Part shown: positions 3,075 to 60,983 of the stretch, piece by piece
Numbering within the stretch: the stretch's first letter is position 1
Layout: each line of letters starts with the position of its first letter
DNA from: Eremomyces bilateralis CBS 781.70
Taxonomy: Eukaryota
Length of the DNA stretch: 64,000 nt
Direction: 5' to 3' (one strand)
Assembly: GCA_010015585.1 (NCBI GenBank)
Contig: ML975180.1
Notes under the pieces: generated by a model
Databases searched by the model: none
Seen by the model: the letters and a program-made list of their open reading frames with translations, nothing else
Told to the model about the DNA's origin: nothing
Program-made: the position numbers and the translations under genes

Positions 3075-6000
3075 ATGCTCAAAGGAGTGAAACGAGAGTT
3101 CCCGGAGGATGACGCTGTCTTGGGGGCTCCCAGCGCACCGAGTCATCCACCTGCCAAAGCGGCGGCATCCCCCACCGCCGCCTCCAGTGCGTCATCCTTC
3201 CGCAATGTCAGCGCCTGCAATCGCTGCCGGTTGCGTAAGCACCGCTGCGACCTCCGCTTGCCGGCCTGCTCGGCGTGCGAGAAGGCGCGGGTGAAGTGTG
3301 TGGGCTTTGACCCCATCACCAAGAGAGAGATCCCTCGCTCGTCAGTGACATCCCGCTGTGACGCGTGCCGTCTCGATACTCAGGAGATGTCGGCTGACCT
3401 TTGGACATGCGTACAGATATGTCTACTACCTCGAAACTCGGGTCGCGTACCTGGAGGGGTTGTTACGAGACAATCGCGTCGAATTCACGCCCCCGGAGCA
3501 ATTTGCCCTCTCCTTTAAACCCGGCCAGAAACCCTCGAACGAATCTCCCAACGGCCAGGTGACTTCCTCGGGGGCAGTCCCAGGGAAGTCGGAGGATGCA
3601 AACCCAGACGGGCAGTACGACCAGGAGAAGCTCAACAAGCTAGTAGATAACATCGGCATGGTGTCCGTGCAAGGGGCATCCGATCCGCGATACCTGGGGT
3701 CCACCTCTGGCATCTCCTTCGCCCGCGTCGTTTTCGCCGCAGTAAAGAGCTCGGTGACAGGCTCCTCATCCGACCGCGGCAGCGTCCGCGCCGGCCGCGC
3801 GATGTCATCCGCAGCTCCGGTAGCAGCAGGTACTGCCTCCATGCGAGATTCGTTCTTCGGGCTGCATACGAGGCCCACCATCAAGCCCGCGCCGTTCCCT
3901 GATCGGGACATTGCGACCCGGTTAGTCGAGATATACTTCGAGCACGCGAATCCGCAGATCCCCATCCTGCATCGTGGCGAGTTCATGGCCATGTTGAACA
4001 CGCTGTATGCAAGCGAGGAACGGGACCGGTCGCCGCGCGACCTTTACATGCTCAACATCGTGTGCGCCATCGGCTCCGGCACGATTCTCGCCCATTCGTC
4101 CGATTCCGACACCCCGCCCCTGCCGGATCAGCCCACCTCCATGCAGCCACCGCATTCCCCACCGTCGCGAAAGCGCCGCCGCATCTCGAGCCAGCAGCAT
4201 CAGCCGGAAGAGTACCACGCGTCGGCCATTGTGCATCTGGAAGCGTTCCTCGGCTCGTCCCCGTCGACGGATCGACCGGAAGGAATCGGCGGCGGATTGG
4301 AGGAACTGCAAGCTGTGCTCCTGTTGGCAGGGTTCGCGTTGCTCCGACCCATCGCGCCGGGCCTATGGTACATCTGCGGCGTGGCCATGCGCCTGGGTGT
4401 CGACTTGGGACTCCACTTCGAGGATCCGCCCGGTGATGAGGGTGCGGACGCCAGGGTCGCGAGGGATCTGGATGTCTCCATGAGGGGGACCAGTTCCGGG
4501 ATGAAAGGGGGGCGGCGGCAGTGGCTGCGGGACTTGCGAAGACGGTTGTGGTGGTGTGTCTACGCATTCGACCGGTTGGTGTCGACCTGCGTCGGCCGCC
4601 CCTTTGGCATCACCGACCAGGTGGTGACGACCGAGTTCCCCTCCCTCCTGGATGACCGATATATCACTCCGGACGGGTTTCTCGCTCCGCCCGGGGGCTC
4701 GGAGACGCCCAGCTACAAGCGGGTCAGTCATCATTATTTCCGACTGCGTCTGCTGCAGTCCGAAATCTTGCAGGTGTTGCAGTATCAGCAAGCGCAGCAG
4801 GCCCGCTCCAGCGGCGTCAACCAGAGCAACGAGTTCATGCACACCAAACTACCGTCCCCGTTCCTGGAGGGCTTCTATTCCTTCAAGTCCTGGCGTTCCG
4901 ACGTGGACCGCCGGTTGCTCGAGTGGAAGGAGTCGGCGCCCACGCAGATCGACACTGGCGTGCAGTTCTCGCCGCTGTTTCTGGAGCTCAACTATTGGCA
5001 GGCCCTCATCATGCTCTATCGTCAAAGTCTAGTGGTTCCCGCGCACCTCGCCAATGACCTGGCGTCTGCGCCGAACGACGTCCATAGCCCGAGCATCGCT
5101 AGCGTAGAGGATCTAGAGGATGAGGAACACGTGTATCTGACGGTGGCGCAGGCCGGGCAGAAGGTCCTTAAGATTTATCGGCAGTTGCATCGCGTTCATT
5201 TGGTCAGCTACACGTATCTTGCAACGCATCATCTGTTCATGGCTGGTATGTGTTCACCCTCCACCCTACGCTTGGTCAAAAGCAACCCCCCTAGATCGTC
5301 AGGGTTGTGGGATCCCGGACAAAGAAAGAGACGTGATCGTGTCGCACTTCGCGTCACGACCGGTACTACAGGGGAATTCTCTAACAAGGACTATAGGTAT
5401 CTCCTTCCTATACGCGATTTGGCACTCCACGATAGTGCGGCAACATTTGGTACGTAAAGGGAACTTGGATCCGCTCTGGTCCCCAACTAATTTATCCCTG
5501 CAGACGCTTGACGATGTGGATTTCACAGTCCTCGCCGCCACCTCCGTATTGGGCGATCTCATCGAGAAATGCCCACCCGCTGAAGCATGTCGCGATGCAT
5601 TCGACCGCATGAGCAAAGCCACGATCCAGATGTGTCTATCGACCACCGGATTCGGTCCCCCCAATAACGCCAAGAGGCCTCGGCCCAATTTCAATCCGTC
5701 GAGCCAAACGCCACTCTCCGAACCGTCGAGGACGCTGAGCTCACCCACATCAGTAATTCAGACCTCGCCAGACACCTTGCCCAACCGCAGTCTCCCGAAG
5801 TTCGACTACGACTTCCGCGACCTCTTCACCGAGGACGAGATCAGTGACCGTTCGTTCCGCCGCATCTCCCAAGCCCTCTCCCGCCCCATGAACCCCCCCA
5901 ATCCGAACATCCCCCCACATCAACCAGGTCCGACGCTTACCTCGTCCGATTCGTTAGTCTCGCATGCCCCGCCGACATTCCCCGGGACCAGCCCGTACGA

Positions 6001-39974: not shown

Positions 39975-42900
39975 TTACAAGGCACAGATTGGACACTTGA
40001 TGACGTCGTCATCACCACTAGTCCCTCTTTCGGCAGCGCGTGCCTCCTTTAAACAATCCCCGTGGAAAATATGCCGGCACGCAAATACTATCAGCGGCCC
40101 CAACTCGCGCGATACTTGTTTGCCGCCCGTATCGATGTCCTCCTCCCCCTCCTCCTCCTCATCCGCGCCGTCGTCGTTAACCCGCCCTTTCCCCCTTTCT
40201 TCAGCGCCCCCCGCACGCTCCCTCCACATCTCCCGCCTAGAATCCTCCAACCGTTTCGTCCGCCGCTCCCACGACTCCCACACCTGCCCCCCGACGCCCG
40301 GGCCCCACACGCGGCGTCGGCACTGCTCGCAGGTCTGCCCCTTGGGTCTCCAGCCGCGCTGACGCAGGTCGTGCGCCCGTGCCACGTGCGAGAAGAGGTT
40401 CTTCGCGAGGAAGTCGGACGCGAGGGCCATGATGGCGGATTCGAAGGCGTAGGCGGTGAAGATTTCGGAGAGGAGGTCGCGGAGGTCGATGAGGGTCGCG
40501 GAGGTGGTGGTGCTCGCGAGGCGCGTGAGGAACTCGCGGAAGATTCGGAGGAAGATGGGAGGGGACTCGCTTGGGGTAGCCGTCAGCGGGGCGGGCGGGG
40601 GAAGAGCGCCGTCCGTCGATTTCGATTCGTCCTGGTGGATGCGTGGTTTGGGCCTTCGTTTCTCCGCCGGACGGCTGACGGCGGTGGCGGAAAGGAGGGC
40701 CGTGAAGGTATATTGGATCATGCTCCGCAGAGAGCCGATGATACGAAGCGGATCGGGGGAGGATTGGTCCAGATCTGTTTGTGATACGGAGCTCGCTGAA
40801 GAAACGCCACGGAGGATTCCCACCAAGGAAGTGATGAGGTCCACCCACATTGACTCCATGGGAGAGAGAGAGTTGGGCCCGGTCCTTGGCGTTTGTTCAA
40901 CCCCGTGTATTTCGCTTGACAGCTTCTTGGTGGTGCGTGACCCTCCCTGGCAAAGCCAAATCCCGAGTTTATAAAACTTGTCGATGGCAGATAGGAGATC
41001 ATCGGCGGTTTCCTCGGCATTTGGCCCGTCTGGGTTATCGGCGGCGGCACGCATGAGGCTGGCGAGGGCAACTTCCAATGTGCGCAGGTGATTGATGAGA
41101 CGCGCCATAGCATCCAGGACCAGACCGTCCCGTGCAAGAAGGAGAACGGCAGCGTCAATAGCCCCGGACTCTTCCATGGCAGGGATCAACACCTTGAGTT
41201 GCAAATCGCCCGAGGGCAGGCTGCTGATATAGTCCGCCACATGCTGCGGATCGAAAGAGCACATCAATTGGATATACTGCTCCTGATACTTCGTCCACGG
41301 TCCCATCTGGAGCGTCTCATTGTCCTCCATTGCAGCTTCGGATTCGAAAAGCGCCCGCATGAAAACGAAGCGGTTGTGGGAACCATCATGAAGCGCGGAA
41401 ATAAAACCGTCGATCGTGGCCGGCGTGCACTGCTGCAACGTTTCTGCCGTTTGAGCATTATCAATGTGCATCAAATCCTGAGCGTGTTGAACGATGACAT
41501 TCTCCACCTCCCGGGTCTGCTTGGGGGCGAGCCCGGTTCGTTTCGCGAACAGGGACCTGATGCAGAGGAAAACGGATTGCTTATCGTCAGGATCTTCGAA
41601 ATAAGCCTCGAGAAGCTGTGCGTGCTGCTTGGTGCCGCGATAGATAGATTTCAAGACACGGTAAAAGCCAGCATCGCGCAGCAACGGGATCAACCACTCG
41701 GTGTCTGCGGGGTGGTACTGCGACAAAAGGTACTCCACGCTGAGTTGACAATCTGATGCCAGTTCCTCGGAGGGGAATCGACACAAGCGCTCGAGGACCT
41801 GGTGCAGGGTTGGGGCCGGCAGGAGCAAAAACTGAGGGAACTTCGACATGCTTCTGGCAATGAACATGTCCAAATAGATGAGTTCGTCGGCGCCGAATTC
41901 GACCGACGACATGACGTCGAGCAGGATGCTCACGATGGTCTGTCTTGTCGGCGCTGTCGACGACTTGTGCTTCGTGCCGTTCATGACCGCGCCGTCCGCT
42001 GCCTGGCCAGCGTTATTCAAAAACGCATCCTCAAATGCTTCGTTCATGACGCTCATAAAACTGGGCGCATCGAAATGAAGGATCCGCCGGAGATAGGGGT
42101 ATGGCGCGATATCGTTTTCGGATACAGGGAATCGCACGAGGGTTTGAGAACCAGGAGGCCACTCGACGAGTTTGGACGAAAATATAAATCGATAGAGCTC
42201 GGATTTGGCCTCCCATGCGATGGAATCGTCCATGTCCGCACCGCTGGGATAGACGCGCCCGGTGAGCGCGAACGCTAAGTACGGAAACATTCGGGTTCCC
42301 GGACCAGCGCCTCCATCCTCGTCAGGAATACTTGGGTCAGGACGTTCGTCGATCGTCGATAGCATCTCGATAAGCGGCGTCACAAAATCGCCGAGCGCCT
42401 GGTTCCAAACATATGCCAGAGCGTCGTAGAGCTGAAACTTTTTGCACAGCGCAGTGGTCAGGTTGATGTCCATGTTCTCGGTATCAAGCTGGCAGATGAT
42501 CTCCTCAAGTTTGACGGCGCGATCGTGGGAGGCGTAGAGCGTGATGAGCTTCTGTAGGACCGTCGGCGGTACGGTCGTGATCCGCCTTTCGAGCACGTGC
42601 GGTTCCAAGACATCGAAGAACAACCATTCCAACGCCGTGTCTTCGAAGAAATCAAAAACGTCATCGAATAGAAATGCCGTTTCTCCGATGCTTAAACAGG
42701 CGGTGAAACTGGTGGCCGTGAGCTCCCTCATCCTCTCCACCGCATCTTCGTCAGGTTCGGAGTCTTCGAAGCGCTTGAACGAGTACCTGAACGACGCAGA
42801 GATGAGTTCCAGCAGCCGATCTCGGACGATCCCATGACGGGCATCGTCATCCTCGGGCAGGCCAACCGTCAATCGGTCTGCATCGCCGTTATAATACGAC

Positions 42901-44821
42901 GTGGCAAGTTCGATAGCTCCGATGTAATCGCCGTGTTCCATCAGCGCTAGAAGTCGGTCGGCCCAGTTGGAAAGGGTTCCGAAGGAAATGTCGTCGACCC
43001 CAAGGAGGAAGAGTCGGCCTTTGTATACGCGGAAGCTCATGTAGAATGCGTCTGCAACGACGCCGTGCATCGATGTATCGGAGCCATCAAGGTCTTCTAC
43101 CACAGGTCGCAGCTGACGAGAAAACAGGTCCTGGTGGAAGATGTGCTTATATATCATGTCCGAGGAGTCCGTTACTCGAAGCTCATTGTCTTCTAGGATT
43201 AGAAGTCTTTGGCTGATCGTCAATGCCGCAAGGACCGAACGACTGAGCCATTGGACGCAAACGATGGCTTCATCGCACTTCCACCGACTTCGCGGGCGGA
43301 AACTCACATCTGCCGGCTTGTCGGCATCGCCGTGCTCGACTGCCTCCACGTCTAGGACGGTGACAATGTTTGACCATACAAATGCTAACTTCGTCGTGGA
43401 GACATCATTTTTGGTGCCGAGTGTGGTTCGCTTGAGCCTGACTGCCGGAAACCAGGCAAGACAGCCGCTCAGGGCACTATGCGGAGGCAGGTCTTTTGGC
43501 CGGGCGGCTTTGAACTGGGTTTCTGCGATGGGTGTCGTCGACACGATCACGAGCAGATACGGGGTGAGCAGCGCGGTTAGGCCAAGACCATCGGTCGGTT
43601 GCTCGACGTTCCCGAGAGGGAGTGGGGAGAATGCCAGGACAGAGCTTGGTTTCCTTGCGCGTTCTGTCGACGGGTCCCCGGCAGGATACCGTCCAAGGAT
43701 ACGCGTCGTTTTCACCGTCCTACCCACGGCACCGAGTCCACGTGTGGCAAGGTGAGAGAAAGCCATTCCCCCATTGTCGGCCGAGACAAGGGCAGTGTGT
43801 CGTGTGCCCAGGAAGCCGACATGAATGACAGAGGCATCTGCAACATGGCCGTCGCCTCGTCGCTCGGCAATCCTAGATCTTTCCAGGGGAGGGATATGAA
43901 GAAAGGGTTTCCCCGGTCGCGATAGCTCCCATGTGAATATGTGGCCGCTCGCATGGCCTCCTGCAACGGTCGAGTGATCCGCAGAGATAGCCAAGGACGT
44001 GACAGGCCCGCACTCGATCGCTTTGGTTCCCAAGCCAATGGTTGACAGCAAACTCTGCTGGTAGTCAAACACCAATATCAATCCTTTGGAAGTGCCAATG
44101 GCTATCGAAGCCGCAACAGCGAGGCACGTTGGCCTCCCATAATTCCGCTTTCCCGTCTCGGAGAACACTTGTCCGGACAATCGTTTAAGTTTGGTCCATC
44201 GAACCACATCCCAAGGGTTCTGCGGCGTTTCGGACTCATCTGCAGGTAATAGCTGACCCGCAAGTGACGACTGCCGCGAATGGGTGGAAAAGAAAGCGGG
44301 CGAAAGGTTTCGAGGGGTCTGGAGAGGTGAGGGAGACAAGCGGCTAGTGAAGCGACGGTCGAAGGGTTGGAAATACCCGGCCCTCGTGCGGCCTACCGAG
44401 AGTCTACTGCTGCTGGCTGGGGAGGAAAGGACGGACGCCTGTTCGTACTATGTTAGTGGAGGCAGGGTATTCCATGAACGGAATAGCCTACATGTCTAGA
44501 TGGTGTGGCATCCACTGCGGAGGATGATTCCGCGAGGCTCTGCGGTCGGTCTCCTTCAGAAGGTAGTTGTGCGTCATTGTGGTCTCGCTGCCGCACTGAG
44601 TCGACATCGCTGCCGAAAGGAGAAAGGGGTTCGGATGTAGGGGGAGGTACATTATCGTACTCGTCTTGGTCGAGGGGGGAGGACGTAGGGTCCACGTCGA
44701 TGAATTGCTCCAGATCTCCTTCTATGGCGACTTCGGATATCGAACGATGGGGATCGGACAATGGCTCGGAGTTCTCGCTAACATCGGCGCTCTCGTCCGT
44801 CGCTCCCGGCGTCGAGTTCAT
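39975..44821 (-). CDS. VPS8: Vps8, CORVET complex subunit
   Basis: 1454-aa ORF plus an upstream acidic exon. N-terminal beta-propeller-like region ('IAIGTSKGLILVFD'), alpha-solenoid and a split C-terminal RING-H2 ('CEQC...CRHIFHGDC...CPIC'). Confidence 0.88.
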
Positions 44822-46056: not shown

Positions 46057-47490
46057 ACCCATAGAGATGCTTCGACTGATCGAGGAGATACTTGGTTATT
46101 ACGTAACGCGACCTACCATAACGAGAGCCTGATCATGGCCGCGAAAATGCCGTGGGCGATCGAGGCCCCTCATGTTGCCCCACGGGCTCGAACGTCGAAA
46201 CCTCTACCCTCGGAGCCAATGATACAGGGCTGGATCAAATCAGTATCCTGCTCTGAGCAGCGCTTATCTACGACACTGGAGGGCCGCAATGCGTTCTTCA
46301 TACCCGTTGATTTCTCAACTGCGGTGGAGGATAGCCTCCTTGTGCAAACGGTTCCACGAAAACCGCGGAAATCACTTCAAGACCGGACGAAACTGTGTTT
46401 GACCATTCGTCAAGATTGAAATATTCGATGAACCGGTCCTTCATCGAGTCGTCGGGATATCCGGATGTGCGTAGGCATTTGAAGCACCTGCAACTGTACA
46501 TGGCAACAAACAGTTGAGCATTCTCTGAATGGACTCGATCAAGCTAAACAATACCCCATACTATATGACACGAAACGTTTGCCGGGTTCAACTGAAAGCT
46601 TGTCATAAGAGTCGCCGCATTGAAACGCGAACATTGCCCGCCGTACCGCGTAGATGTAAATACCTACCTAGTCTAGAATCAATCGTAGATGCCCTAAGCT
46701 ACTTTGGTTTCTGGACTTGGACAATTCCATGTATCTCACTCAGATTCAGGGCAATCGAGTACATTCGCCTAGCAAGAAAACCAATCGCTTCGTTCCTAGG
46801 TGGTTGACAGGATCGTTTCGGGAAATTCGGTCCGCTCGGGTTGTGGAGAGACTGATATTCAGTTCCATCCAGCACACAGTAACTCACAAGGTTAATAGAC
46901 AATAAAAGATTATAAAGGTTATCCTCGATCTCTCCAAAGAAATACGGGGGGAAGTTTCAACCAACATCAACGATACCAGTATCCGAATTCCCTCCTTTAA
47001 TCACGGGGAAAAGCGACTCTTCTTTGGCGCCCAAGTTTGGTCGGGGAATTAAGTATCATAAAATTCATGATTCGTTTCTCATTTCTCATTTCAGGAGGGT
47101 TAGGTCATGTCGATCGGGGCCAGACCATCCAGACCTTCCACGTGAAGTTTAAAGCACTCCACCCACCTCACCTAGCAAGAAATTAGTAACTCGAACAATA
47201 GACTTATGGAGTAGGCATAAACGGCTTTTCAATTTTAAAAAGGGCGAGCTGACGAGATTCGGTATCTTAGTCGATGGTTTCAGGTCTTGAAATACGGTGA
47301 TCGGCAGCTTAGGCGGCGGTTCAACTCACTCCAATTCGATTAGCGCCTGGGGTGGAGGCGTGGCCGCGCCGGCGATCCACGATGGGAGATCGGACGTTCC
47401 AGAATCTGGGTTAGGGTCGCGTTTCGCATCCCAGCCTCTCGCGAGAGGTCGATGTGGTGTTGTTCGTATTCTCGGTCATTTTAGAGGAAA

Positions 47491-47496
47491 TATAAA
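47491..47496 (+). promoter_or_regulatory. Probable TATA box of the lysozyme gene
   Basis: TATAAA starting 84 nt upstream of the ATG at 47575. Confidence 0.5.
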
Positions 47497-47574
47497 GGTA
47501 TCACGGCGCCAGATCTGCAGTGTCACTCGAAATCCAGTGCACGTCATTTTATACAGACTACAGAGACTTTCAGT

Positions 47575-48604
47575 ATGTTGTTCAAAGCTGGCCTGACCCT
47601 CTGCACCCTCGGGGCACTCTGCTCCACCGTGGTAGCAGAGTCCTGCACCATTTCCTCAGGTATGCCATAGGCACGAACGACTACAATGATACGAGACTGA
47701 ATGTAATCCAGGCGTTGCGGGTGAATGCCTCGCAACCTCAGAATGCTCCGGCACGTCGACCGCAGGGTTCTGCCCAGGAGCCGCGAATATCCAGGTATGA
47801 CAGCTTCCGTATCCCCTCGCCCAACCGGTCAGAAAGGATCGGGCCGTTGATAGGAATCTAGTGCTGCACCTACGGCAGCTGCACATCCGGAGGCGCGGCC
47901 GGCCTGTGTATCCCGACCTCTGGTTGCACTGGGACTTCTACAGCGGGCCTGTGTCCGGGACCGGCGGGCATCCAAGTACTAAATAGCACCGGCCTGAAAC
48001 CATCATGATTGCTGACCGACGCCGTACAGTGCTGCACGTCCGGAACTAGCAGCAGTTGCGATCCCCAGCCAATTAACGCGGCTACCGTGAGCTTGATCAG
48101 GGAGTTTGAAGGCTTCGTTGCTAGCCCGGAGCCGGATCCGATCGGGTTGCCGACCGTCGGCTATGGTCACCTGTGCCAATCGGACGGGTGTGCGGAAGTG
48201 TCGTATTCCTTCCCCCTGACTGAAGAGAATGCGGCAGCACTGTTGCACAGCGACGTGAAGGTAGGAGCCGGAACAATCCAACAGTAGTGTTCGAAGATAC
48301 TGACTTCCACCAGACTTTCGAGGACTGTGTCTACGACTACCTCGGCGCTTCGATAACCCTGAACGACAACCAGTTCGGAGCGATCGTCTCGCTGGCCTTC
48401 AACGTCGGGTGCGGCAACGTCAAGTCGTCCTCGCTCATCAGCCGACTTAATGCGGGCGAGACGCCCAACACGGTCGCGGCAGAGGAGTTCCCTAAGTGGA
48501 ATAAGGCGGGAGGATCCGTCCTGGCGGGCTTGACCCGGCGACGCGCCGCGGAGGTCGTGCTGTTCAAGACCGCGAGCGATGTCACCGCGCACCCGGCGTG
48601 TTAA
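47575..48604 (+). CDS. Secreted GH24 (phage T4/P21-type) lysozyme with two N-terminal six-cysteine repeats, ~267 aa
   Basis: Exons 47575-47659, 47712-47794, 47862-47975, 48030-48260, 48314-48604 join in frame. Signal peptide MLFKAGLTLCTLGALCSTVVA; catalytic E-x8-D-x5-T ('EGFVASPEPDPIGLPTVGYGH'); 'NQFGAIVSLAFNVG'; 'WNKAGGSVLAGLTRRRAAE'. Confidence 0.9.
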
Positions 48605-48969
48605 AAGGGGCCATGGATTCTCCTTGCTCTTCGAGTACTCTGAAATTTGGTTGAGAGAATGCAACCCTAGATCTCATAGAGAATGGAAGGCTAAGCTTGC
48701 TTCGCTTTGACCATCACGGATTTGATAGGCAGGCGTGGCAGGGCAGTTGAATGTGAGCGACTCCGCCTAGGCACAATGGACGACAAAGAATACACAGCAG
48801 TGGTCTATAGGATAATGTCAGTGCCATAATCCACATTCCCTATTATTGTTCAACTTCCATGCAATTAGTGAATACAGCGGTAAGAACCGTGAGATGAAGA
48901 GTGGATCAGTTGTGACAGTCGACAGGCCAGGACCACAGGAGACAATGCGCGATGCTCCAGATGACAATC

Positions 48970-49010
48970 CACGTGATTATACACGTGACACACAATTGAC
49001 GCTCCACGTG
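48970..49010. promoter_or_regulatory. Cluster of three CACGTG E-boxes (bHLH/Cbf1-type sites) upstream of TRA1
   Basis: CACGTG at 48970-48975, 48982-48987 and 49005-49010. Confidence 0.55.
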
Positions 49011-49460: not shown

Positions 49461-52400
49461 ATGGCGGAAAAGAACCTAGAAGCATTCGCTGCGAAGCTCG
49501 ACGACCCAAACCTTGGTGAGTTTGAACCAGGACCAGGCTACTTCAGCAATTAAGAGCATACTGACAATGGCATGGTTAGATGTTCGGATAAAGTGTACTG
49601 TCGCGACTGAGCTACGAGATAGCATAGAGATATGGTGTCAAGGCTCGTCTTATGCGACGTTCGTCGAGCGGTTCATCCCCATTTTCATGAATCTATTAGA
49701 TGGCCCGCCAGTCTTCATGAGCAATTCCCCAGAACAGGTTCGTTCGAAGACCCTACCACCTGGCTCCGCTAACCAGCATAGCGACTGCGATTATGTGTCC
49801 TCGAAATCCTCTTCCGACTCCCCATGACACCATCCGCCACATTGGAGCAGCATACGCCGCGGATCGTCGACCGGCTCATGGACCTCGTGCGCATCGAGAA
49901 CGAAGATAATGCGACCCTCTGCATCAAGACGGTCATGGACTTCCTGCGGAATCAGCCGAAGGCGCTCGCGGACCGGGTTCAGCCCTTCTTAGATCTCATC
50001 CAGGAGATGTTTCAACATATGGAGCAAGCAGTCAAGGATACCTTCGACAACCCGGCGCATGGAGGCGCTCAGGGCCTCCCATCGACACCCGGAAATGCTC
50101 AATACTCGAACTCTCCTCGCCCGGGCTCCCCGGTGACTTCAACGTCGTCAGCCGACATCGTTACGGAACAACCGCAGGCCCGCCCGCTGCAGAAAGGGAT
50201 GCAATCCTTCAAAGTGATTGCCGAATGTCCGATTATTGTCGTATCCATTTTCCAGGCTCACCGGGGCTGTGTCAACAAGAACGTACGGCTGTTCGTCCCC
50301 CTGATAAAGAACGTTCTGCTCCTCCAGGCGCAACCGCAAGAGCGAGCGCACGACGAGGCCAGGGCCCAAGGGAAAATCTTCACGGGTGTCTGCAAGGACA
50401 TTCGGAACCGCGCGGCCTTCGGCGATTTCATCCTCGCCCAAGTCAAGACGATGAGCTTCCTGGCATATCTGCTGCGTGTGTACTCTTCGCAGCTAACCGA
50501 CTTTTTGCCAACCCTGCCCGAGATTGTCATTCGCATGCTGCAGGATTGCCCGAGAGAACGGTCAGGTGCACGAAAGGAGCTGCTGGTTGCCATTCGGCAC
50601 ATCATCAATTTCAACTTCCGCAAGATCTTCCTGAAAAAGATCGACGAGCTTCTGGATGAGCGGACCTTGATCGGCGACGGCCTCACCGTGTATGAGACGA
50701 TGCGGCCGCTGGCGTATAGCATGCTCGCGGACCTCATCCATCATCTCCGCGATTCCCTGTCTCGGGAGCAGATTCGGCGGACCATTGAGGTCTACACAAA
50801 GAATCTCCACGACGATTTCCCCGGGACGAGCTTCCAGACCATGAGCGCGAAGCTGCTCCTGAACATGTCGGAGTGCATCGCCAAGCTCGAGCCAAAGGAG
50901 GATGCGCGTCATTTCCTGGTCATGATTCTTGACGCCATCGGAGATAAGTTCGCGGCGATGAACCGACAATATGACAACGCAGTGAAGCTATCCAAGTCCT
51001 ACACTCCTCCACCGATCGAGGCCTCAGCCGAGAACTTCCTCGCGGATCCGACACAGAAGCCCGACTGGGACGAGGTTGACATCTTCAACGCCACCCCAAT
51101 CAAAACGTCTAATCCTCGAGAGCGGAACTCGGATCCGGTGGCCGACAATAAGTTCCTCTTCAAAAACCTTCTCCAAGGGCTCAAGAACCTCTTCTATCAG
51201 CTGCGCGTGTGCAATCCGCAAAAACTGAAGGACGAAATTGACCCCACGAATGCCCCCGCCAATTGGAACGAGGTATCGTTCGGCTATAATGCTGAAGAGG
51301 TCAAGGTCCTGATCAAGCTGTTCCACGAAGGGATCCAAGTCTTCAAGTACTATGGGGTGGACAAGGCGCCCTTGGATAGTAACGATGCACAGTCCGTCAC
51401 GCAGTATGCTGGTTCCAAGGAGGAAAAAGAGCTGCTGGAGGCGTTCGCGACCGCCTTTCACCACATCGATCCCGCGACGTTCCACGAAGTCTTCCAGTCC
51501 GAGATCCCCCATCTGCATCAGATGATTCTCGAGCACGGTTTCCTCATCCACATCCCGCAGTTCCTCCTCGCCAGCGAAGCAACATCTCCCGCCTTCGCTG
51601 GCATGCTCCTGCAATTCCTCATGACCAAGATCGAGGACATTGGGAGCTCTGATGCGAGGCGAACGTCGACATTGCTCCGCCTCTTCAAGCTGTTCTTCAT
51701 GGCTGTCACCCTATTCTCGCAGCAGAATGAACCCGTCCTGCTCCCCCACGTCATCAAGATCATCACCAGGTCATTTGAGCTCTCGACAACCGCGGAGGAG
51801 CCGATGAATTATTTCCTCCTCCTACGAAACCTGTTTCGAAGCATCGGGGGCGGTCGCTTTGAAGTGTCGTACAACCACCTTCTCCCGCTGCTGGAGATGA
51901 TTTTGGAGACGCTGAACAGCCTACTCCGGACAGCACGGAAACAGCAAGAGCGAGACATATTTGTCGAACTCTCGCTTACCGTCCCGGCGCGTTTGAGCAA
52001 CCTTCTTCCGCACCTGAGCTATCTCATGCGGCCGCTGGTTGTGGCCTTGCGGGCTGGCCCCGAGCTCGTGTCTCAAGGCCTGCGCACGCTCGAGCTCTGC
52101 GTGGATAACCTGACCGCAGACTATCTCGATCCAATCATGGGACCGGTCATCGATGAGCTGATGGCCGCTCTCATGGAGCATCTGAAACCCACCCCGTACA
52201 GTCATTTCCATTCCCACACCACGATGCGGATCCTCGGCAAACTCGGCGGGCGAAACCGCAAGTTCTTGACCGGCCAACAGGCGCTCGATTTCAAGGCCTA
52301 CGCGGACGATGAGCCGAGCTTCGACATCCGACTGACCGGCTCCGCGCGTGAGCGGGCGTTGCCAGCATCGCTTGGCCTCGAAGTCGCGATCTCCACGCTG

Positions 52401-55400
52401 ACCGAAGTGCCCCGCCACGTCCAGGCGAAGAAGTTCGACGCCACGCATAAGCAGCAGGCCTTCCGGCTCATCCTCTCGCAGACCAAGCTCCTGATCGGTT
52501 ACGAGCATTTGCCCGACGATTTCACGCAGCTGGTGCGGCTGCAAGCGGACGACGCCTATGCTCGGCACTTTGACATTGGCCCGGATTGCCTGATGGAATC
52601 CTCGCGCGACAAATCGTTCGCGAAGCGAGATGCCCAACGGGATACGCTGCGAAAGCTCCTGAAAGCCATTATCTTCGCGACCTCTGTTCCGGAGCTGTGC
52701 GATGAGGCCACTGTCTTTATCCATGATCTCGCGCGACACTTCACCGTGCTCGATCTGGGCAGATGGCTCGCATACGCCAAACATGGGAGTAAGCCCTTCG
52801 ACGCGAAGGCTGGGGAAGGACCGCTCTTCATCGACACCCGAGTCATTGCGGACGCGATCGCGGACTCCCTCGCCTCCGATAGTCTCGATACCAGAAAAAC
52901 CGCAGAAACGATGCTCGAGACGATTCGAGACGCCGCGGCCGCCATCTTCGGCCCGGGTCGCGCTGCTGAGAAGCTCCCGTTGTTCAAGCACTTTGGCCGA
53001 TTGTTCGCCCACCGTTGCCACGAGGAAGAATGGTTCACCAAGGCGGGCGGGACCTTGGGCATCGAGATCCTGAGCAACCGCCTAGACTTCAGCGACGACT
53101 GGCTCCGCGAACGGCAGCAGGATTTCGTGCGAGCGTTGATGTACGTCCTCAAAGACATGCCGCACGACGTCTCGTCCACGACGCGTACCCAAGCGTTGGA
53201 TGCGCTGCTGGCCACCGTTACGCGGTGCAACCGCAAAGCCGAGAAGAAGGATTTGTCCGATCCCAAGTCCAGCTTGAGCGTGCTCTGCTCGTTTCTCATT
53301 TTCGAGCTGGCGCACATGAGTAAACACGTGCGGAACGCTGCGCAGAAGGCGTTTACGGTGCTGAACGAAACGACGGGTATCGGGACCCACGAGCTCATCC
53401 GGCCATTCAAGGACAAGGTGCTCCAAACCATCTTCTTGAAGCCCCTTCGGGCGCTACCGTTTGGCACACAGATCGGCTACATCGAAGCTGTTACGTTTTT
53501 CCTATCCCTGGGACACAGCCTCGTCGATTTCAATGACCACCTGAACCGGCTGCTGATGGAGTCCCTCGCCCTTGCCGATGCAGACGATGAGACCCTCGCC
53601 TCGAAACCGCTGGAGCACCGGAGCGCCGAGTCCATCGTCCGGCTCCGCGTAGCATGCATCAAATTGCTATCGACCGCACAAGGCTTCGCAGAGTTTGGCA
53701 GTTCGCCTCCGAACCAGCAACGGACGCGAGTTATCGCCGTCTTCTTCAAGTCGTTGTATTCCAAGGCCCCCGACGTGGTCGAGGCGGCCTACACCGGACT
53801 CTCTGGCGTTTTGGTCACCACGAACAAGTTACCGAAAGACCTCCTCCATAGCGGTCTGAAGCCGATCCTCATGAACCTTCAGGACCCCAAAAAGATCACG
53901 GTGGAGGGCTTGGAGGTGCTGGCTCGGCTGCTGAAGCTGCTGACGAGTTATTTCAAACTGGAGATCGGATCACGGTTGCTGGACCACATGAAAACCATTG
54001 CGGACGGTCCCGCCTTGCAACGAACCTCATTCACGCTTATCGAACAACACCGGCCCATGAAAGTAATCAAGGCGATCCTCAACATTTTCCATCTTCTGCC
54101 TCCTACCGCCGTCTCGTTCTTGGGCAGCCTAGTCGCCAAGGTGATGGAGCTCGAGTTGGCACTTCGTCGCACCCGAATCAGCCCGTTCCGCGAACCGCTC
54201 CTGAAGTATCTCAACCGGTACCCGAAAGAGACGTGGGACTTCTTCGCCCCGAAGCTCCCGGACCTTTCCTACAGCCGCTTCTTCGCCCAGCTCCTCGCAG
54301 ATCCCAGCAGCGATCCGTTGCGAGAAGCCGTCTGTAACGACACCGCGCCGGTCGTCAGCGGGTTGGCGGCGGAAAGCGATGGTGAGCGATGGCCGGTGAT
54401 CATTAGCTCTATCCATATCACATGGTCGGTGTGTCAGGCTGACAAGACCAAGAATTTCCTGGTCAGGCGGGAAGGGATCCGAAAAGCGCTCCTCGACGTC
54501 GGCAAGCTCCTCGAGACACGGCTGAGGACCAACAAGATCGACCCGAGCGTTCGTTTGGCCGCCGACCAAGCGGCTCAACAGCTGGTCGACATCTTCACCG
54601 TCACCATGTCGCAAGATCCGCGCAACGTGGACCTCTTTTTCGAAGTCGTGAACGCGGTGACGGCAGATGAACTTCGTGCTTCTCCAACCCTCTTCCACTA
54701 CATATACGAGGCCATTGTGACCAGTGACGCCGTGGACTTTTCGCGGAGTTTATTGATGCGTTGTATCGAGCTTTATGCTGGCCGCGGCGCCTCGCAGAAG
54801 ACCAAAACGTTCTTGTTCCACAACGTCGTCAACCCCATCCTTGCACTGGACGTCATGCGGAATTGGGACGGCCTCTTTGGGAACCAGAAAGGTACCAAGC
54901 TGATGGACCGCGCTATGATAGATGCGGTCAACACAAAGTTGTGGAGACCTCAATCGATGATCGATACCTCGGAGGAAACGGGCCAGATCGGCGTCGATCA
55001 CTCGCGGATGGAGCTGCTGCAACTCACGGCGCTCCTGCTCAAATACCATACCAACCTGGTGCAGGACTTCCGGAAAGACGTCATTCGGTTTGGCTGGAAC
55101 TTCATCAAACTAGAGGACGTGATCAACAAGCACGCCGCATACGTAGTAGTCGCATACTTCGTCGCCCATTACGATACCCCTCCCAAAATCGTCATGCCTG
55201 TGTATCAGACGCTGCTGAAGGCGCACCAGAACGAAGGACGGACACTCGTCACGCAGGCGCTCGAGCTCATGGCTCCGGTCCTCCGAAAGCGCCTGATGGG
55301 CGGCAGCGAGAGCAAATTCCCGGCGTTCGCGCGTATGCCCAAAAAGATCCTCACCGAAGAAAGCCACAATCTGCAACAGCTGATCAGCATTTTCAATTTC

Positions 55401-58400
55401 ATCGTCCGGCATCCCGACCTGTTCTACGAAGCCCGAGAGCCGCTGTCGGTGATCATCATTCCTGCGCTGGCCAAGATCGCCCAGCCTCCCAGCCCCTCCA
55501 ACGAGCACAAGCGGATTGCGATCAACCTGATCAGTCTCATCTTCCAGTGGGAGGACCGTGCCGCTCGAGAGTTCCGGGAAACTAGTTCCCCTGCCGGTAC
55601 GAAACGAAAAGCGGACGGTACACCCATGCCGCGGAGCAACTTCCTCGCCAACCCCGCGTTGCGCATGGTTCTCGTCCAGTACCTCGTCACATTCATCGCA
55701 TCGCTACCAGAGCGGTACCCTGTCGCGTCTCAGCGCACCAAGGACGCGTTGAGCACGCAGCCGCAAAATCTTCCCAATCCCGAAACCTCCAAGATGGCGG
55801 TACGACTATTGCACAAGCTAGTCTCGCCTCCGCACTGGATGGACTTGGATATCCCATCGCTCCTTTCTCCTCACGCGGAGAAGGGCCCGCAGCTCATCGA
55901 GCAGAACCTCGCCACCGATCAAGGAGCCGACGAGAAGCCGGAGATCTGGCTCACGCGACAGATCAACACGCTGGAGATCGTCAAGATCCTCGTCAACGTT
56001 GTGTCGGACACGTGGTTGCTCGAGAACATCGGCCGGGTCCAGAAGCTGCTCGAGAAAACTATGCGGATGGAGAGCTCCGAAGTGCAGGATTGCTTGCACT
56101 CGCCGGAAGCGGCCGAGTCCGGCATCAGCGGGATGGTGCCGACAATTGAGCGAGTCCTTCACATCATTCCCGACAAGGCGGCCGAGGAGGACGAGAACAG
56201 CGACGACTCACCGGGAGCCGAGTTTATCCAATTCTGTGGCACGGTTGCGAACGAAGGCTTGTCCAACGGCCATCTCGTTTCCGCACTTAACGTCCTGTGG
56301 ACGCTCTGCAAGAAGAAGCCGCAGGAGGTTGATCAGCACATTCCCGCTATCATGAAGGTTTTCCAAACCAAGCTGCTGAAGGACCACTTTTCCGCTCCCC
56401 CGGCGCATCCGGCAATACCGCATCCACGAGCTGCGGACTCCACGAACGCTACCCCTGACCCTGTCGAGTATCAAATCCAAATCGGCCTGATCTTGAAGAC
56501 CATCGACATCTTGGATGCACGAATGAACTCTTTGAATGAGAATCGGCGACCCTTTCTGCAAGCGCTGGCGCAACTGGTGGAGCGTTCGCAGAGCACCGTC
56601 ATTTGCACCAAGATCCTGGAATTGGTCGAGAAATGGGTCTTCCACCACACGGGAGAGCTTTTCCCGACCATGAAGGAAAAGACGGCAGTGCTGAGCAAAA
56701 TGCAGGCGTTTGAGCAGAGAGCCGATCCGACGCTGATGCGCCGCTTCCTCGACCTGGTCATCCGAATCTACGAGGATCCCAAGATCACGCGATCCGAACT
56801 GACGGTGCGCATGGAGCCGGCATTTCTGGTCGGAACAAGGGCGCAAGACGTCGACATGCGCAACCGTTTCCTAGGCATCTTCGACCGCCACCTCACCCGC
56901 ACAGCTAGCAGCCGCATCAACGCCTTGCTCGCTTCCCAAGACTGGCTTCCGCTGAGCGACACATACTGGCTGTCGCAGGTCACCCACCTCCTTCTCGGCT
57001 CGGTCGACACAAATCACACGGCCCAACTCCACGATGATGATTTCAAGGTCACGTCCCCGAACCTCGTGTTCGGAACGTACGCCAAAGACTCGCGCATCGC
57101 AAATGTGATCGTGGACGGCGAGTTCGACGTGTTCATGAACTCGTGGAAATCCTTCCACCAGGGCCTCGGCGACGTGAAGGTCAAGGATATTCTGGAGCCG
57201 CTCGGTCAACTGCAGCACACCAACACGACGCTGGCACATGATATATGGGTCGCCTTGTTCCCGATGTTCTGGATCACCGTCCCCAAAGACGACCGCGGGG
57301 ATTTTGAGAAGGCGTTGGTTGCATTGTTGACCAAGGAGTTCAATTACCGGCAGATCGACAAACGACCCAACTGCGTCCAGTCTTTGCTGGAAGGCATTGT
57401 CCGCGCGAAGCCGCGATTGAAGTTTCCGCCGCAGGTTATGAAGTATCTAGCCAAGACATACAATGCGTGGTATACTGCTGCCCATTACATGGAGGAGGCG
57501 TCGATAAATCCGGTCATCGACACCGCGTCGGTACGGGAGAGTACCTCGGACGCGTTGTTGGAACTGTATTCGAACCTCTTAGAGGACGACTTGTTTTACG
57601 GTACTTGGCGTCGGCGCTGTCAATACGTAGAGACCAACGCGGCACTGTCCTACGAGCAAATCGGCATGTGGGAGCAGGCGCAGCGAACATACGAAGCTGC
57701 TCAAATCAAGGCTCGAACGGGAGCGTTGCCGTTCTCGCAAGGCGAGTACATGCTGTGGGAAGATCATTGGGTCATTTGCGCCCAGAAGCTTCAGCAGTGG
57801 GATGTCCTCGCCGATTTTGCAAAGCACGAGAACTTCAACGATCTCTACCTAGAGTCGACGTGGCGACACATCGAGATGTGGAACACGGCCGAGTCACGGG
57901 AGCAGCTCGAATCGATCATCAAGTCGGTGTCGGATGCGCCGACGCCGCGGCGGGCATTCTTCCAGGCCTTCATGTCCTTGTTGAAATACAACGCGAAGCA
58001 AGAGACGCCTCAAGACCTGAACCGATTCACGGACGAGGCCATCCAGATTTCCATCCGCAAGTGGCACCAGCTTCCCAAGCGCATCACCAATGCGCACATC
58101 CCGATCCTGCAGAACTTCCAGAACCTCGTGGAACTGCACGATGCCAGTATCATGTGCACCAGCCTAGGGCAGACCAACCAAGCGAACCTAGAGGTCAAGG
58201 CGCAGGAGTTGAAGCTCCTTCTCGGGTCCTGGCGCGATCGCCTGCCAAATTTCTGGGACGACATCAACGCGTGGCAGGATCTGGTAACCTGGCGGCAGCA
58301 CATCTTCCATCTCATCAACAACGTCTATCTCTCGCTCCTGCAAAATAACCAAGCCACTCCCGGACAAGCGAATTCCTACCACTACCGCGGCTTCCATGAA

Positions 58401-60983
58401 ACCGCCTGGATCATCAATCGATTCGCTCATGTGGCGCGGAAACACAACCTCACCGACGTGTGCATCCAGCAGTTGGGCCGCATCTATACTCTACCCAACA
58501 TCGAGATCCAGGAAGCGTTCCTCAAACTCCGCGAGCAGGCCAAGTGCCACTACCAGAACCGGGCGGAACTGAACCAGGGCTTGGAGGTGATCAACAACAC
58601 CAACCTCAACTACTTCACGGCACAGCAAAAAGCCGAGTTCTTCACTCTCAAGGGCATGTTTTTGGAGAAGCTGGGCGAACGACACGAAGCGAACGGCGCG
58701 TTCGGCAGCGCCCTCTGGTTCGAGATCAAACATCCCAAGGCCTGGGCGGAATGGGGGCGTTACAACGACAACATCTTCAAGGAAAATCCCGCCGACATGG
58801 AGCGCGCCTCCTCCGCCATCGGATGTTACCTAGAAGCGGCAAGCACTTACAAGAACGCCAAGTCGCGGCGGTTGCTCAGCCGTGTGCTTTGGCTCCTGAG
58901 CCTCGACGACGAGCGCCGCACGGTGGAGACGACCTTCCGGGAGTTCAAGGGCGATCATCCCACGTGGTACTGGATCACATTTATCCCCCAGCTCATCCAA
59001 GGCCTGTCCCGACAGGAGGGCGTCGTCGCCCGGATGCTGCTCGCCAAGATCGCCAAGTCGTTCCCCCAGGCCCTGTTCTTCCAGTTGCGGACCGCGCGAG
59101 AGGAGTTTACGAACTTGAAAAAGCAGCAGGACGCCGCGCTAGCTAAGGACCGAGCTGCCAAGGCTCGACAGCATAGCCAGCAACCGAAAAGCTCGCCGAC
59201 ACAAAAGGCCACCCCCGACTCCCGCCCGGCAACGGCATCTGGAACCAAAGAGGACGCCAATACGTCTGCCGGAACCGCTGACGGGACGCCCAAGATGGAG
59301 GCGAAGACCGAGCCGACTCCAGATGGAGTGGCCGCGGCGGATACGCCAAAGAAGCCCTGGGAATATGCCGAGGACATCATGTCGACATTGAGAACGGCGT
59401 TCCCGCTGCTCGCGTTGTCGTTGGAAACCATGGCCGACCAGATGGCCAAGTACTTCAAGTGCCCGCCGGACGAAGATGCATACCGGCTCATCGTTGCGCT
59501 GCTGAACGATGCTCTGTCCTACATCGGCCGCACTCCGCACTCGTACGGGCAAGATGTCAAACTCCCTCCGTCGACGGAAGCGAACATCACCAAATTCGCC
59601 CAATCCATCCTCCCCGCGCACATTCGAGGGTTCTTTGAGTCCGACTTTGTGCTCAAGAAGCCGACCATGTACGAATACATGCAGAAGCTTCGTAAATGGC
59701 GCAACAAGTTCGAGGAGCGACTCGATGCCCGTGACAACCCGACGAGCCTGGAGCTGCAGAGCTCGCATCTCAGCGAGTTCAAGTACGCCAAATTCGAGGA
59801 CGTCGAGGTCCCGGGGCAGTATCTCATGCTCAAGGACAAGAACACCGACTTTGTCAAGATCGAGCGGATTCTGCCGAACGTGGAGCAGGTGCGTGGCAGT
59901 GGTGTGTCGTGGCGACGGATCAGGATCCGGGGACACGATGGAAGCGTCCATATCTTTACGGTGCAGCATCCGGCTACTAAACAGGCTCGACGAGAGGAAC
60001 GGATCATGCAGTTGTTCCGCATCTTCAATGGTACTTTGGTCAAGAAGCGAGAAGCCCGACGTCGGAACCTTCAGTTCACGCTTCCCGTCATTGTGCCGCT
60101 CTCCAACATTGTTCGGCTGATTCAGGAGGACCCGTCCGCTGTCAATCTGCAGCAGATCTACGAGACGTATTGCCGGTTGAATGGCATCAACAAGGACGAC
60201 CCCATCTTGTTCAGCATCGAGAAGATGCGGGGATTGAGTCCAGTAAGTTTTCCGACCTCCGGACGCGGGATCGCTGCTGACCATCTTGAACAGAAATCAC
60301 CCGCCGAGTACTTGAATGCGCTTCGCCTAGAAATCTACACATCTATTCAAGACAAGTTCGTCCCCAACTCGGTGGTGTTGGACTATTTCCAATCCACCTA
60401 CCCGTCGTTCGCCGATCTTTGGTTATTCCGTCGCACCTTTGCCTATCAGTTTGCGGCGCTGTCCTTCATGACCTATATCATGCACATGAACGCTCGCACG
60501 CCACAGAAACTGTTCATCAGCCGGGGCACCGGGCGCGTCTGGGGATCGGAGCCGTTCCCCTCCATCTCCGCGGGCAAAGCCGTCTTCCACAATCCCGAAG
60601 TCGTCCCGTTCCGCCTGACGCCGAATCTCCAAACCCTGATGGGCCCGCTGGGGACCGAAGGCATCTTCGCGCCGTCCATGATGGCGCTCGGGCGGTGCTT
60701 GGTTGAGCCCGACGGCGAGCTGGAAATGCAGCTGGCCATCTTCGTGCGGGACGAGGTGACGTTCTGGCACACGCAGTCGCACCGGCCCGCGCCGAACACG
60801 ACGCAGTTGCGGGAGCTGGTGCAGGGGAACATCGAGCTGGTGTCAAGAAGGGCGATGAGCTTCGCGAAGCCGCCGAATAGTCCGAACCTGCCGGCCAATC
60901 AAACAGTCGTGGACTCCGTGGCGCTTGCCGTCAATCCCAACAAGCTGGCGGTGACGGAACCGCTGTGGATGGGATACTTGTAA
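49461..60983 (+). CDS. TRA1: Tra1/TRRAP PIKK pseudokinase, SAGA/NuA4 subunit
   Basis: ~3.8k aa with HEAT, FAT, PI3K-like and FATC regions ('SFKVIAECPIIVV','WRDRLPNFWDDINAWQDLVTWRQHIF','VPFRLTPNLQ','PLWMGYL'). Introns 49516-49579, 49738-49781, 60243-60293. Confidence 0.97.

Follow-up and report, generated by a model that had tools for sequence, protein, structure and literature searches.

The window, as we call the whole analyzed stretch of 64,000 nucleotides (nt) from contig ML975180.1 of the fungus Eremomyces bilateralis CBS 781.70 (assembly GCA_010015585.1), contains a lysozyme gene whose product is composed of a putative signal peptide, N-terminal six-cysteine modules, a short linker, and a C-terminal GH24 domain. 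The gene is located on the plus strand at positions 47575-48604. A five-exon GH24 gene with N-terminal repeats had been proposed here by a model that read the DNA letters alone (the original prediction). Splicing by script within window positions 47200-49000 joins the five exons into a frame of 804 nt, or 267 codons, and all introns have GT..AG ends. The product of 267 amino acids (aa) is identical letter for letter to the deposited protein P0001, 'lysozyme [Eremomyces bilateralis CBS 781.70]', which bears out the proposed gene structure; the gene model is already annotated. The signal peptide spans approximately residues 1-21, with cleavage guessed after VVA, as judged by eye from the hydrophobic core, the small residues at positions -3 and -1, and the alignment of homologs. 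The gene itself is annotated and belongs to a family of antibacterial lysozymes that has been published for fungi; the interest lies in its module. The exons and introns are arranged as follows.

47575-47659, plus strand: exon 1, with the start codon, the signal peptide, and the start of module 1 (first cysteine)
47660-47711, plus strand: intron 1, 52 nt, GT..AG, phase 1
47712-47794, plus strand: exon 2, with the remainder of module 1 minus its final CC
47795-47861, plus strand: intron 2, 67 nt, GT..AG, phase 0, without a CTRAY branch-site motif
47862-47975, plus strand: exon 3, 114 nt, 38 codons, phase 0/0, with the last two cysteines (CC) of module 1 and the initial four of module 2
47976-48029, plus strand: intron 3, 54 nt, GT..AG, phase 0; a branch-site motif (CTGAC) lies 14 nt before its end
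48030-48260, plus strand: exon 4, with the CC that ends the last module, a short linker rich in Ser and Thr, and the beginning of GH24, including E121, D130, and T136
48261-48313, plus strand: intron 4, 53 nt, GT..AG, phase 0
48314-48604, plus strand: exon 5, with the second part of GH24 and the stop codon

The GH24 domain matches the Pfam family PF00959 with 138.7 bits, against a cut-off of 22.3, over profile positions 2-125 of 125. Exon 4 alone covers positions 2-49 (E 1.3e-08) and exon 5 positions 51-125 (E 1.2e-25), and therefore the profile is continuous across intron 4. Residues E121, D130, and T136, spaced as E-x8-D-x5-T, are invariant in six aligned fungal GH24 proteins: the window protein, GH24 of Trichophaea saccata, two lysozymes of Coprinopsis cinerea, and proteins of Pyronema and Coniosporium. 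We take E11, D20, and T26 of T4 lysozyme, which have the same spacing, to be the catalytic Glu, Asp, and Thr. The intact motif read from the letters was thus confirmed. Judging from its sequence, the gene very probably encodes a secreted-type GH24 (T4-type) muramidase from the family of C. cinerea LYS1-5. The catalytic part needs no special explanation.

Splicing of exon 3

One public sequencing run (X1), whose RNA nature is guessed but whose contig is spliced, covers the stretch. The sole contig is 3044 nt long, has a depth figure of 827, and contains no mismatches. Its joints 47659|47712 and 48260|48314 agree with introns 1 and 4 of the gene model. Between them, the contig joins position 47794 directly to 48030, again with GT..AG ends, and skips 235 nt composed of intron 2, exon 3, and intron 3. 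The acceptor of intron 2 is unused, and that of intron 3 is joined to the donor of exon 2. Exon 3 is covered by no contig of the X1 assembly, in which contigs retain one path and drop rarer ones and which represents a single RNA sample; an mRNA with two modules was not seen there. The exon-3-skipped transcript encodes 229 aa with six cysteines that form one module, followed by GH24. Since exon 3 is of phase 0/0 and carries the CC of module 1 together with four cysteines of module 2, its omission preserves the frame and restores exactly one complete module. These data suggest that exon 3 behaves as a cassette exon, and that the number of modules depends on its inclusion. The expected splicing of exons 1-3 to the GH24 exons was hence observed for introns 1 and 4, whereas the joints of exon 3 were not seen.

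Repeat collapse during assembly was considered as a source of the 47794|48030 joint and rejected, because the longest exact run common to the two repeat halves is only 10 nt. Logan assembles with 31-letter words.

It is a serious possibility, to which we give somewhat less than even odds, that the working product in E. bilateralis has one module. Exon 3 would then be a rarely used or decaying cassette, and the 267-residue model a minor isoform or an annotation choice. The deep and mismatch-free contig without exon 3 speaks for this, as do the exclusion of repeat collapse and the in-frame restoration of a complete module. The CTRAY motif, missing from intron 2 and present in intron 3, points in the same direction, but its absence is a weak hint only, because intron 1 also lacks the motif and yet is spliced. 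Against a one-module product, the frame of exon 3 is open over all 38 codons and bounded by canonical splice sites, its coding sequence is conserved in relatives, and all its cysteines match those of two-module relatives (domain identity of 61-69% to seven proteins). The loss of rarer paths from contigs and the single RNA sample also limit what the contig says about the two-module form. The exon-skipped isoform provides a natural comparison of one module with two.

The lysozyme contig extends about 1.9 kb upstream beyond position 47450, over a putative TATAAA at 47491-47496 and the intergenic region. The extension may reflect overlapping transcripts of neighboring genes or a start located far upstream. 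The gene lies in an ordinary fungal chromosome context, flanked by core housekeeping genes.

39975-44447, minus strand: 5' neighbor, Vps8 homolog, with Beta-prop_VPS8 (E 6e-84) and TPR_Vps8
49782-60983, plus strand: 3' neighbor, Tra1/TRRAP homolog, with Tra1_ring and Tra1_central

Contamination or a recent bacterial insert was rejected as an origin of the lysozyme gene because of its four spliceosomal introns and its Vps8 and Tra1 neighbors.

Six-cysteine modules and their predicted fold

Modules 1 and 2 have the cysteine spacings C-x9-C-x5-C-x8-C-x7-CC and C-x8-C-x5-C-x8-C-x7-CC, respectively. A direct pattern check reproduced the spacings that the original prediction had given for both repeats. 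The module is 35-40 residues long, and one or two copies are placed ahead of GH24. The net charges of the two modules are -3 and 0, and the isoelectric point (pI) of the N-terminal domain is 4.05, in keeping with the earlier description of the repeats as near-neutral and not cationic. All twelve cysteines (12/12) are invariant in 18 aligned two-module proteins, including P0026 of C. cinerea, and the seven proteins to which the two-module region is 61-69% identical come from ascomycetes, basidiomycetes, and metagenomes. The cysteine framework contains neither CxxxC nor CxC, both of which are included in the framework of cysteine-stabilized alpha-beta (CSalpha-beta, cis) defensins (PMC5234102). 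Searches of the modules against Pfam gave no defensin family at E<=10; the best matches were Thionin (E 0.62 or 0.053) and DUF6691 (E 0.2), all far below the cut-offs. The CLIP family PF12032 has no Pfam match in the window protein, and its best E value, 0.39, was obtained in the relative P0127 only.

Two relatives deviate in their module region. P0010 (259 aa) of Coniosporium agrees with P0015 (285 aa) of another Coniosporium species as far as mid-module 1, continues with a Pro/Ala-rich stretch, and rejoins it at GH24; it may be a gene model that misreads the module exons, or a true loss of modules. C. cinerea P0053 (262 aa) has a shortened second module with two cysteines missing in the alignment, either because module content varies naturally, perhaps, or because a small exon was overlooked.

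A profile built from 18 two-module regions was compared with 1.84 billion representatives of clusters at 50% identity. The number of clusters matched is at least 952 at E<=0.001 and falls to 316 at E<=1e-10 and to 13 at E<=1e-30; the module pattern is therefore not due to chance. Partners were counted at E<=1e-5 against Pfam in the best 149 representatives besides P0001, 35 of which have a Pfam partner and 114 have no Pfam family.

GH24: 8 proteins (two also with VanY), peptidoglycan hydrolase
PF18013: 4 proteins, peptidoglycan hydrolase
NlpC/P60: 5 proteins, peptidoglycan hydrolase
Further VanY/M15: 3 proteins, peptidoglycan hydrolase
GH25: 2 proteins, peptidoglycan hydrolase
Amidase_2: 1 protein, peptidoglycan hydrolase
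M23+GH19: 1 protein, peptidoglycan hydrolase
Rv2525c-like: 1 protein, peptidoglycan hydrolase
RNase T1-type: 3 proteins, not a clear peptidoglycan hydrolase
DUF7223/DUF7029 alone: 2 proteins, not a clear peptidoglycan hydrolase
Peptidase_C39_2, BSP, PPC, GH18, and papain: 1 protein each, not clear peptidoglycan hydrolases

The profile search of the repeat, suggested alongside the original prediction, thus found mainly peptidoglycan hydrolases as partners (25 of the 35). Three of the 114 representatives without a Pfam family are GH184-like. The copy number of the module, counted by pattern, ranges from 0 to 21 among the representatives. Of 90 candidates from a word-seeded search that used residues 22-100 of P0001, 16 proteins have E<=0.01, with fusions to NlpC/P60 (in Klebsormidium nitens), VanY, the phage-tail lysozyme PF18013, and an FGE-sulfatase-like domain. 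A C-terminal domain without a name, present in proteins of Entomortierella, Geopyxis, and Tilletia, matches GH184 (P0123 against 8b2h, E 2.7e-44, and against 8b2e, E 5.2e-35).

The hosts of the module include Dikarya, Mortierellomycota, Neocallimastigomycota, a streptophyte alga, a choanoflagellate, and myxobacteria (myxobacterial-type metagenome-assembled genomes, MAGs). The member from Cryphonectria parasitica has three modules and GH24, and that from the choanoflagellate Bicosta minor combines the module with M23+GH19; other named members come from Entomortierella and a Minicystis MAG. On the 145-kb contig L001 of an uncultured deltaproteobacterial MAG, positions 1990-3393 of the plus strand encode a 467-aa protein composed of GH25 (E 9.8e-44), a long Ser-rich linker, and three C-terminal modules. 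A Byssovorax MAG carries a stretch related to this GH25-module protein.

In the bacterial proteins inspected (the L001 protein, P0128, and P0132), the modules are placed C-terminally of the catalytic domain, and in the fungal GH24 and GH184 proteins that were read, N-terminally. P0136 and P0284 of Neocallimastix californiae (1244-1245 aa) contain about 21 tandem modules by pattern; their UniRef name includes a Peptidase C39-like domain, and Pfam finds no family in them at E<=0.001. Three proteins (P0137, P0140, and P0177) combine the module with a secreted RNase T1-type domain (PF00545), two of them also with DUF7223/DUF7029, as in Aulographum hederae.

An SH3-like wall-binding domain is known from GH24 and from the new GH184 family (Moroz et al. 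2023, PMC10394673; PDB 8b2e, 8b2h). It binds cells of Micrococcus lysodeikticus, and its removal lowers activity, according to the accessible text of that paper. We compared the two accessory domains in the best 120 GH24 homologs longer than 168 aa, detecting the module by a local profile and the SH3-like domain by phmmer with residues 18-95 of P0036 from T. saccata. The module is present in 46 homologs, the SH3-like domain in 22, both in 0, and neither in 52. The T. saccata SH3-like domain was not matched by phmmer in P0001, nor in any module carrier among the 120. Both domains are N-terminal on GH24. The remark accompanying the original prediction, that fungal GH24 proteins more often carry an SH3-like domain, is reversed in this set.

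AlphaFold2 was used to model the two-module region and, from an alignment of 26 modules, one module of Geopyxis P0123. The models have predicted local distance difference test (pLDDT) values of 89.5 and 94.3, respectively. Each modelled module is formed by four short strands and has no helix of four or more residues. The models were compared with 48,161 representatives of the PDB using VIA-align, with matches counted at Z>=2. Only two chains reach this value with the two-module model, one of which is helianthamide, aligned to module 1. The single-module model has 10 such matches among the 48,161 representatives.

Helianthamide: Z 2.8, root-mean-square deviation (rmsd) 2.1 Å, 34 aligned residues, 41% identity
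APETx1: Z 2.5
Drosophila Grass clip domain (2xxl_B): Z 2.4, 37 aligned residues
Consensus human beta-defensin: Z 2.3
PAP2 clip domain, clip 2 (2ike): Z 2.2
hBD4: Z 2.1
Oyster big defensin 44-93: Z 2.1
Platypus Int-DLP: Z 2.1
ShI: Z 2.0
Cypridina luciferase: Z 2.0

The ten chains comprise four defensins, two CLIP domains, three sea-anemone peptides, and one luciferase. We take the sea-anemone peptides helianthamide, APETx1, and ShI to have a beta-defensin-type fold. This list of nearly one class, together with the lack of helices in the models and of CxxxC and CxC in the framework, argues for two tandem all-beta modules of beta-defensin/CLIP type rather than a CSalpha-beta domain, and we consider such a predicted fold likely. 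Disulfides in beta-defensins are paired C1-C5, C2-C4, and C3-C6. Solely on account of the 41% identity over 34 aligned residues with helianthamide, the pairing in the module may be beta-defensin-like.

Other searches with the models and profiles returned weak matches or none. Foldseek against viral models (BFVD) found nothing below E 2.9. The two-module profile matched only cysteine-rich stretches of P2X3 and a BMP receptor among PDB sequences (E>=0.75), and the one-module profile matched nothing there significantly, its best hits being a zinc-finger protein (E 0.35) and then the PAP2 clip domain (E 0.4). A search of the ESM Atlas by features gave no usable match. By structure, the ESM Atlas yielded the same module in other fusion clusters, as well as arthropod CLIP proteases and CUB proteins at template-modelling (TM) scores of 0.45-0.50, among them a CLIP-protease cluster at TM 0.47.

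Role of the modules

In the lysozymes LYS1-5 of C. cinerea, the signal peptide is followed by a 12-Cys 'defensin-like domain', which a linker connects to GH24, according to the accessible text of Kombrink et al. (2019, ISME J, PMC6461984), on which the following details are based. The genes lys1-3 are induced by Escherichia coli and Bacillus subtilis, and LYS1 and LYS2 are found in the induced secretome. Lysis of several Gram-positive bacteria is described for LYS2 and LYS3, and the D131A variant of LYS2, in which the counterpart of the window protein's D130 is replaced, is inactive. Ten stand-alone defensin-like proteins (DLP1-10) share the domain in C. cinerea, none of which was producible; bacteria induce four of the dlp genes, and enrichment in the induced secretome was seen for three DLPs. 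The fold given for the 12-Cys domain in that work is a PHYRE2 guess of a helix and two strands in a CSalpha-beta arrangement. The combination of signal peptide, cysteine domain, and GH24 is thus already published. The modular antibacterial protein of the original prediction is supported insofar as it is a secreted-type modular GH24 with bacteria-induced and lytic homologs; its architecture, the novelty of which had been left open, is not new.

We hypothesize that E. bilateralis uses a secreted acidic GH24 muramidase bearing one or two disulfide-locked modules, the copy number of which would be set by the splicing of exon 3. The module would be a non-catalytic targeting unit for the bacterial envelope, most likely for peptidoglycan or something attached to it. 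Envelope binding would keep the enzyme attached to prey or competing cells, with an avidity set by the number of module copies. We infer the envelope-targeting role, at odds approaching even, because of the partner census, the mutual exclusion with a proven wall-binding domain, the variable copy number, and the acidic or neutral charge. The exclusion concerns the same position on the same two muramidase families, and the three-module GH25 on the 145-kb bacterial contig is a further point in favor of targeting. To the explanation as a whole, that of a GH24 muramidase with beta-defensin/CLIP-type modules that target the envelope, we assign a probability of roughly 0.5.

Several observations weigh against this explanation. 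LYS2 without its N-terminal domain lyses bacteria and cleaves peptidoglycan like the full-length enzyme (lysis at 20 ug/ml in buffer), as far as the accessible text of PMC6461984 reports, and this is real evidence against a contribution of the module to lysis in that setting. The 35 Pfam partners include ten that cannot clearly be called peptidoglycan hydrolases, and the RNase T1-type partner, which does not act on cell walls, is a poor fit to a simple wall-hydrolase story. Stand-alone module proteins are common, with 25 of the 149 representatives being at most 150 aa long, which suggests that the module is able to act by itself. The RNA seen from E. bilateralis carries one module only. With regard to the fold, Z scores of 2.0-2.8 are low in absolute terms, but low values are expected for 38 residues, and the list at Z>=2 is almost wholly of one structural class. 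In the PDB, Foldseek returned no hit better than E 2 with the two-module model and no hit of any kind with the single-module model, and no Pfam defensin or CLIP model matches the modules. The defensin-like character originally ascribed to the repeats is therefore upheld by the predicted all-beta fold and the structure comparison, and not by Foldseek or Pfam. Similarly, their proposed use as wall-targeting modules agrees with the prevalence of peptidoglycan hydrolases among the partners and disagrees with the unchanged lysis after domain deletion in LYS2 (PMC6461984), an outcome that, as regards lysis, had been named beforehand as refuting it.

The modules could instead be antibacterial effectors themselves, binding for example lipid II or membranes, in which case the lysozyme would be a two-weapon fusion and the stand-alone DLPs the same weapon alone. 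We regard this as unlikely. The beta-defensin-like predicted fold is consistent with it, as are the frequent stand-alone module proteins and the bacterial induction and secretion of the C. cinerea DLPs (PMC6461984). However, both modules lack positive net charge (-3 and 0) and their domain is acidic at pI 4.05. LYS2(D131A), with an intact N-terminal domain, caused no lysis, and killing without lysis is not reported in the accessible text of PMC6461984. Since no DLP was producible, no DLP activity is known from that work. The many different wall-hydrolase partners and the presence of up to 21 copies fit a binding module better than a toxin.

Even less probable, in our view, is a role on the side of the producer, in which the modules would be stabilizing or secretion-aiding disulfide knots, tethers to its own wall, CLIP-like domains for regulation or protein-protein contacts, or shields against bacterial inhibitors or proteases. 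CLIP domains are regulatory in arthropod proteases, and helianthamide is an enzyme inhibitor; the likeness of the predicted module structure to both would suit such a role, and so would the non-wall partners RNase T1-type, papain, GH18, and BSP. The lysis by LYS2, unchanged on removal of the domain (PMC6461984), can be read in the same way. Nevertheless, 25 of the 35 Pfam partners act on peptidoglycan. C-terminal modules also occur on bacterial GH25 and PF18013 proteins of myxobacterial-type MAGs, where a tether to a fungal wall would be senseless, and in none of the 120 GH24 homologs does the module occur together with the proven wall-binding domain, which takes the same position. Envelope targeting is the role that we prefer.

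In the literature, taken without subscription journals and patents, we found no follow-up on the DLP domain and no beta-defensin-type fold in fungi. Within the same scope, three aspects were not found in print: the reading of the fold as beta-defensin/CLIP-like, the spread of the module beyond fungi with many wall-hydrolase partners, and the cassette-exon isoform. We tentatively propose, at odds of clearly less than even, that the module belongs, well outside animals, to the beta-defensin/big-defensin/CLIP (trans-defensin) structural superfamily and serves peptidoglycan hydrolases as a repeatable envelope-binding part, the number of which is set in E. bilateralis by skipping of a cassette exon with boundaries such that one perfect module is rebuilt. 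If this is true, animal beta-defensins and CLIP domains could descend from, or converge with, an ancient accessory module of microbial wall hydrolases. The family has no Pfam model and comprises at least 952 clusters. Because it accompanies at least eight kinds of peptidoglycan hydrolase across kingdoms, the module is a strong candidate for a new wall-targeting family, similar to carbohydrate-binding modules (CBM-like), and would be useful for muramidase engineering.

Comparison with known systems

The closest known relatives of the window protein are the C. cinerea lysozymes, with which it aligns over the full length (54% identity to P0026 and 58% to P0053). They have in common the signal peptide, twelve conserved cysteines, the short linker, and the C-terminal GH24 with its E/D/T residues. 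Unlike the single 12-Cys domain described for C. cinerea LYS proteins, the region in the window protein resolves, in the predicted structure, into two tandem all-beta modules. Another difference is that the second module of E. bilateralis resides on a cassette exon, which is skipped in the RNA seen.

The T. saccata GH24 with the SH3-like domain belongs to the same catalytic family, is 55% identical overall, and likewise has an N-terminal accessory domain on a short linker. Like the SH3-like domain (PMC10394673), the cysteine module occurs on GH24, GH184, and other wall hydrolases. The two domains are unrelated, however, and are found together in 0 of 120 GH24 homologs. Whereas removal of the SH3-like domain causes a loss of activity (PMC10394673), the one published deletion of the cysteine domain did not, according to the accessible text (PMC6461984).

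Arthropod CLIP domains (PF12032) resemble the modules in being N-terminal, disulfide-locked, sometimes tandem, and placed ahead of a hydrolase. By sequence, the likeness is limited to the PAP2 clip domain as the second-best match of the module profile in the PDB, which is not significant (E 0.4). The partners of the module are wall hydrolases and not trypsin-like proteases, and its central loop is shorter than that of CLIP domains.

Beta-defensins, big defensins, and sea-anemone peptides make up 7 of the 10 PDB representatives at Z>=2. Features common to them and the module are six cysteines, the last two adjacent (CC), a G-x-C ahead of the second cysteine, and, in the models, a small antiparallel beta-sheet. 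The loops of the module (x8-9, x5, x8-11, and x7-8) are longer than those of beta-defensins, and beta-defensins differ from it also in that no Pfam defensin family matches the module. Trans-defensins have been placed only in vertebrates and some invertebrates (2024 paper, PMC11561630), and their fold only in animals (PMC8877149), as far as the accessible texts go. If the predicted fold is confirmed, the trans-defensin type of fold would be present in fungi and bacteria, and not in animals only. Unlike beta-defensins, the module is acidic or neutral, and it occurs in tandem inside enzymes of fungi, an alga, a choanoflagellate, and bacteria.

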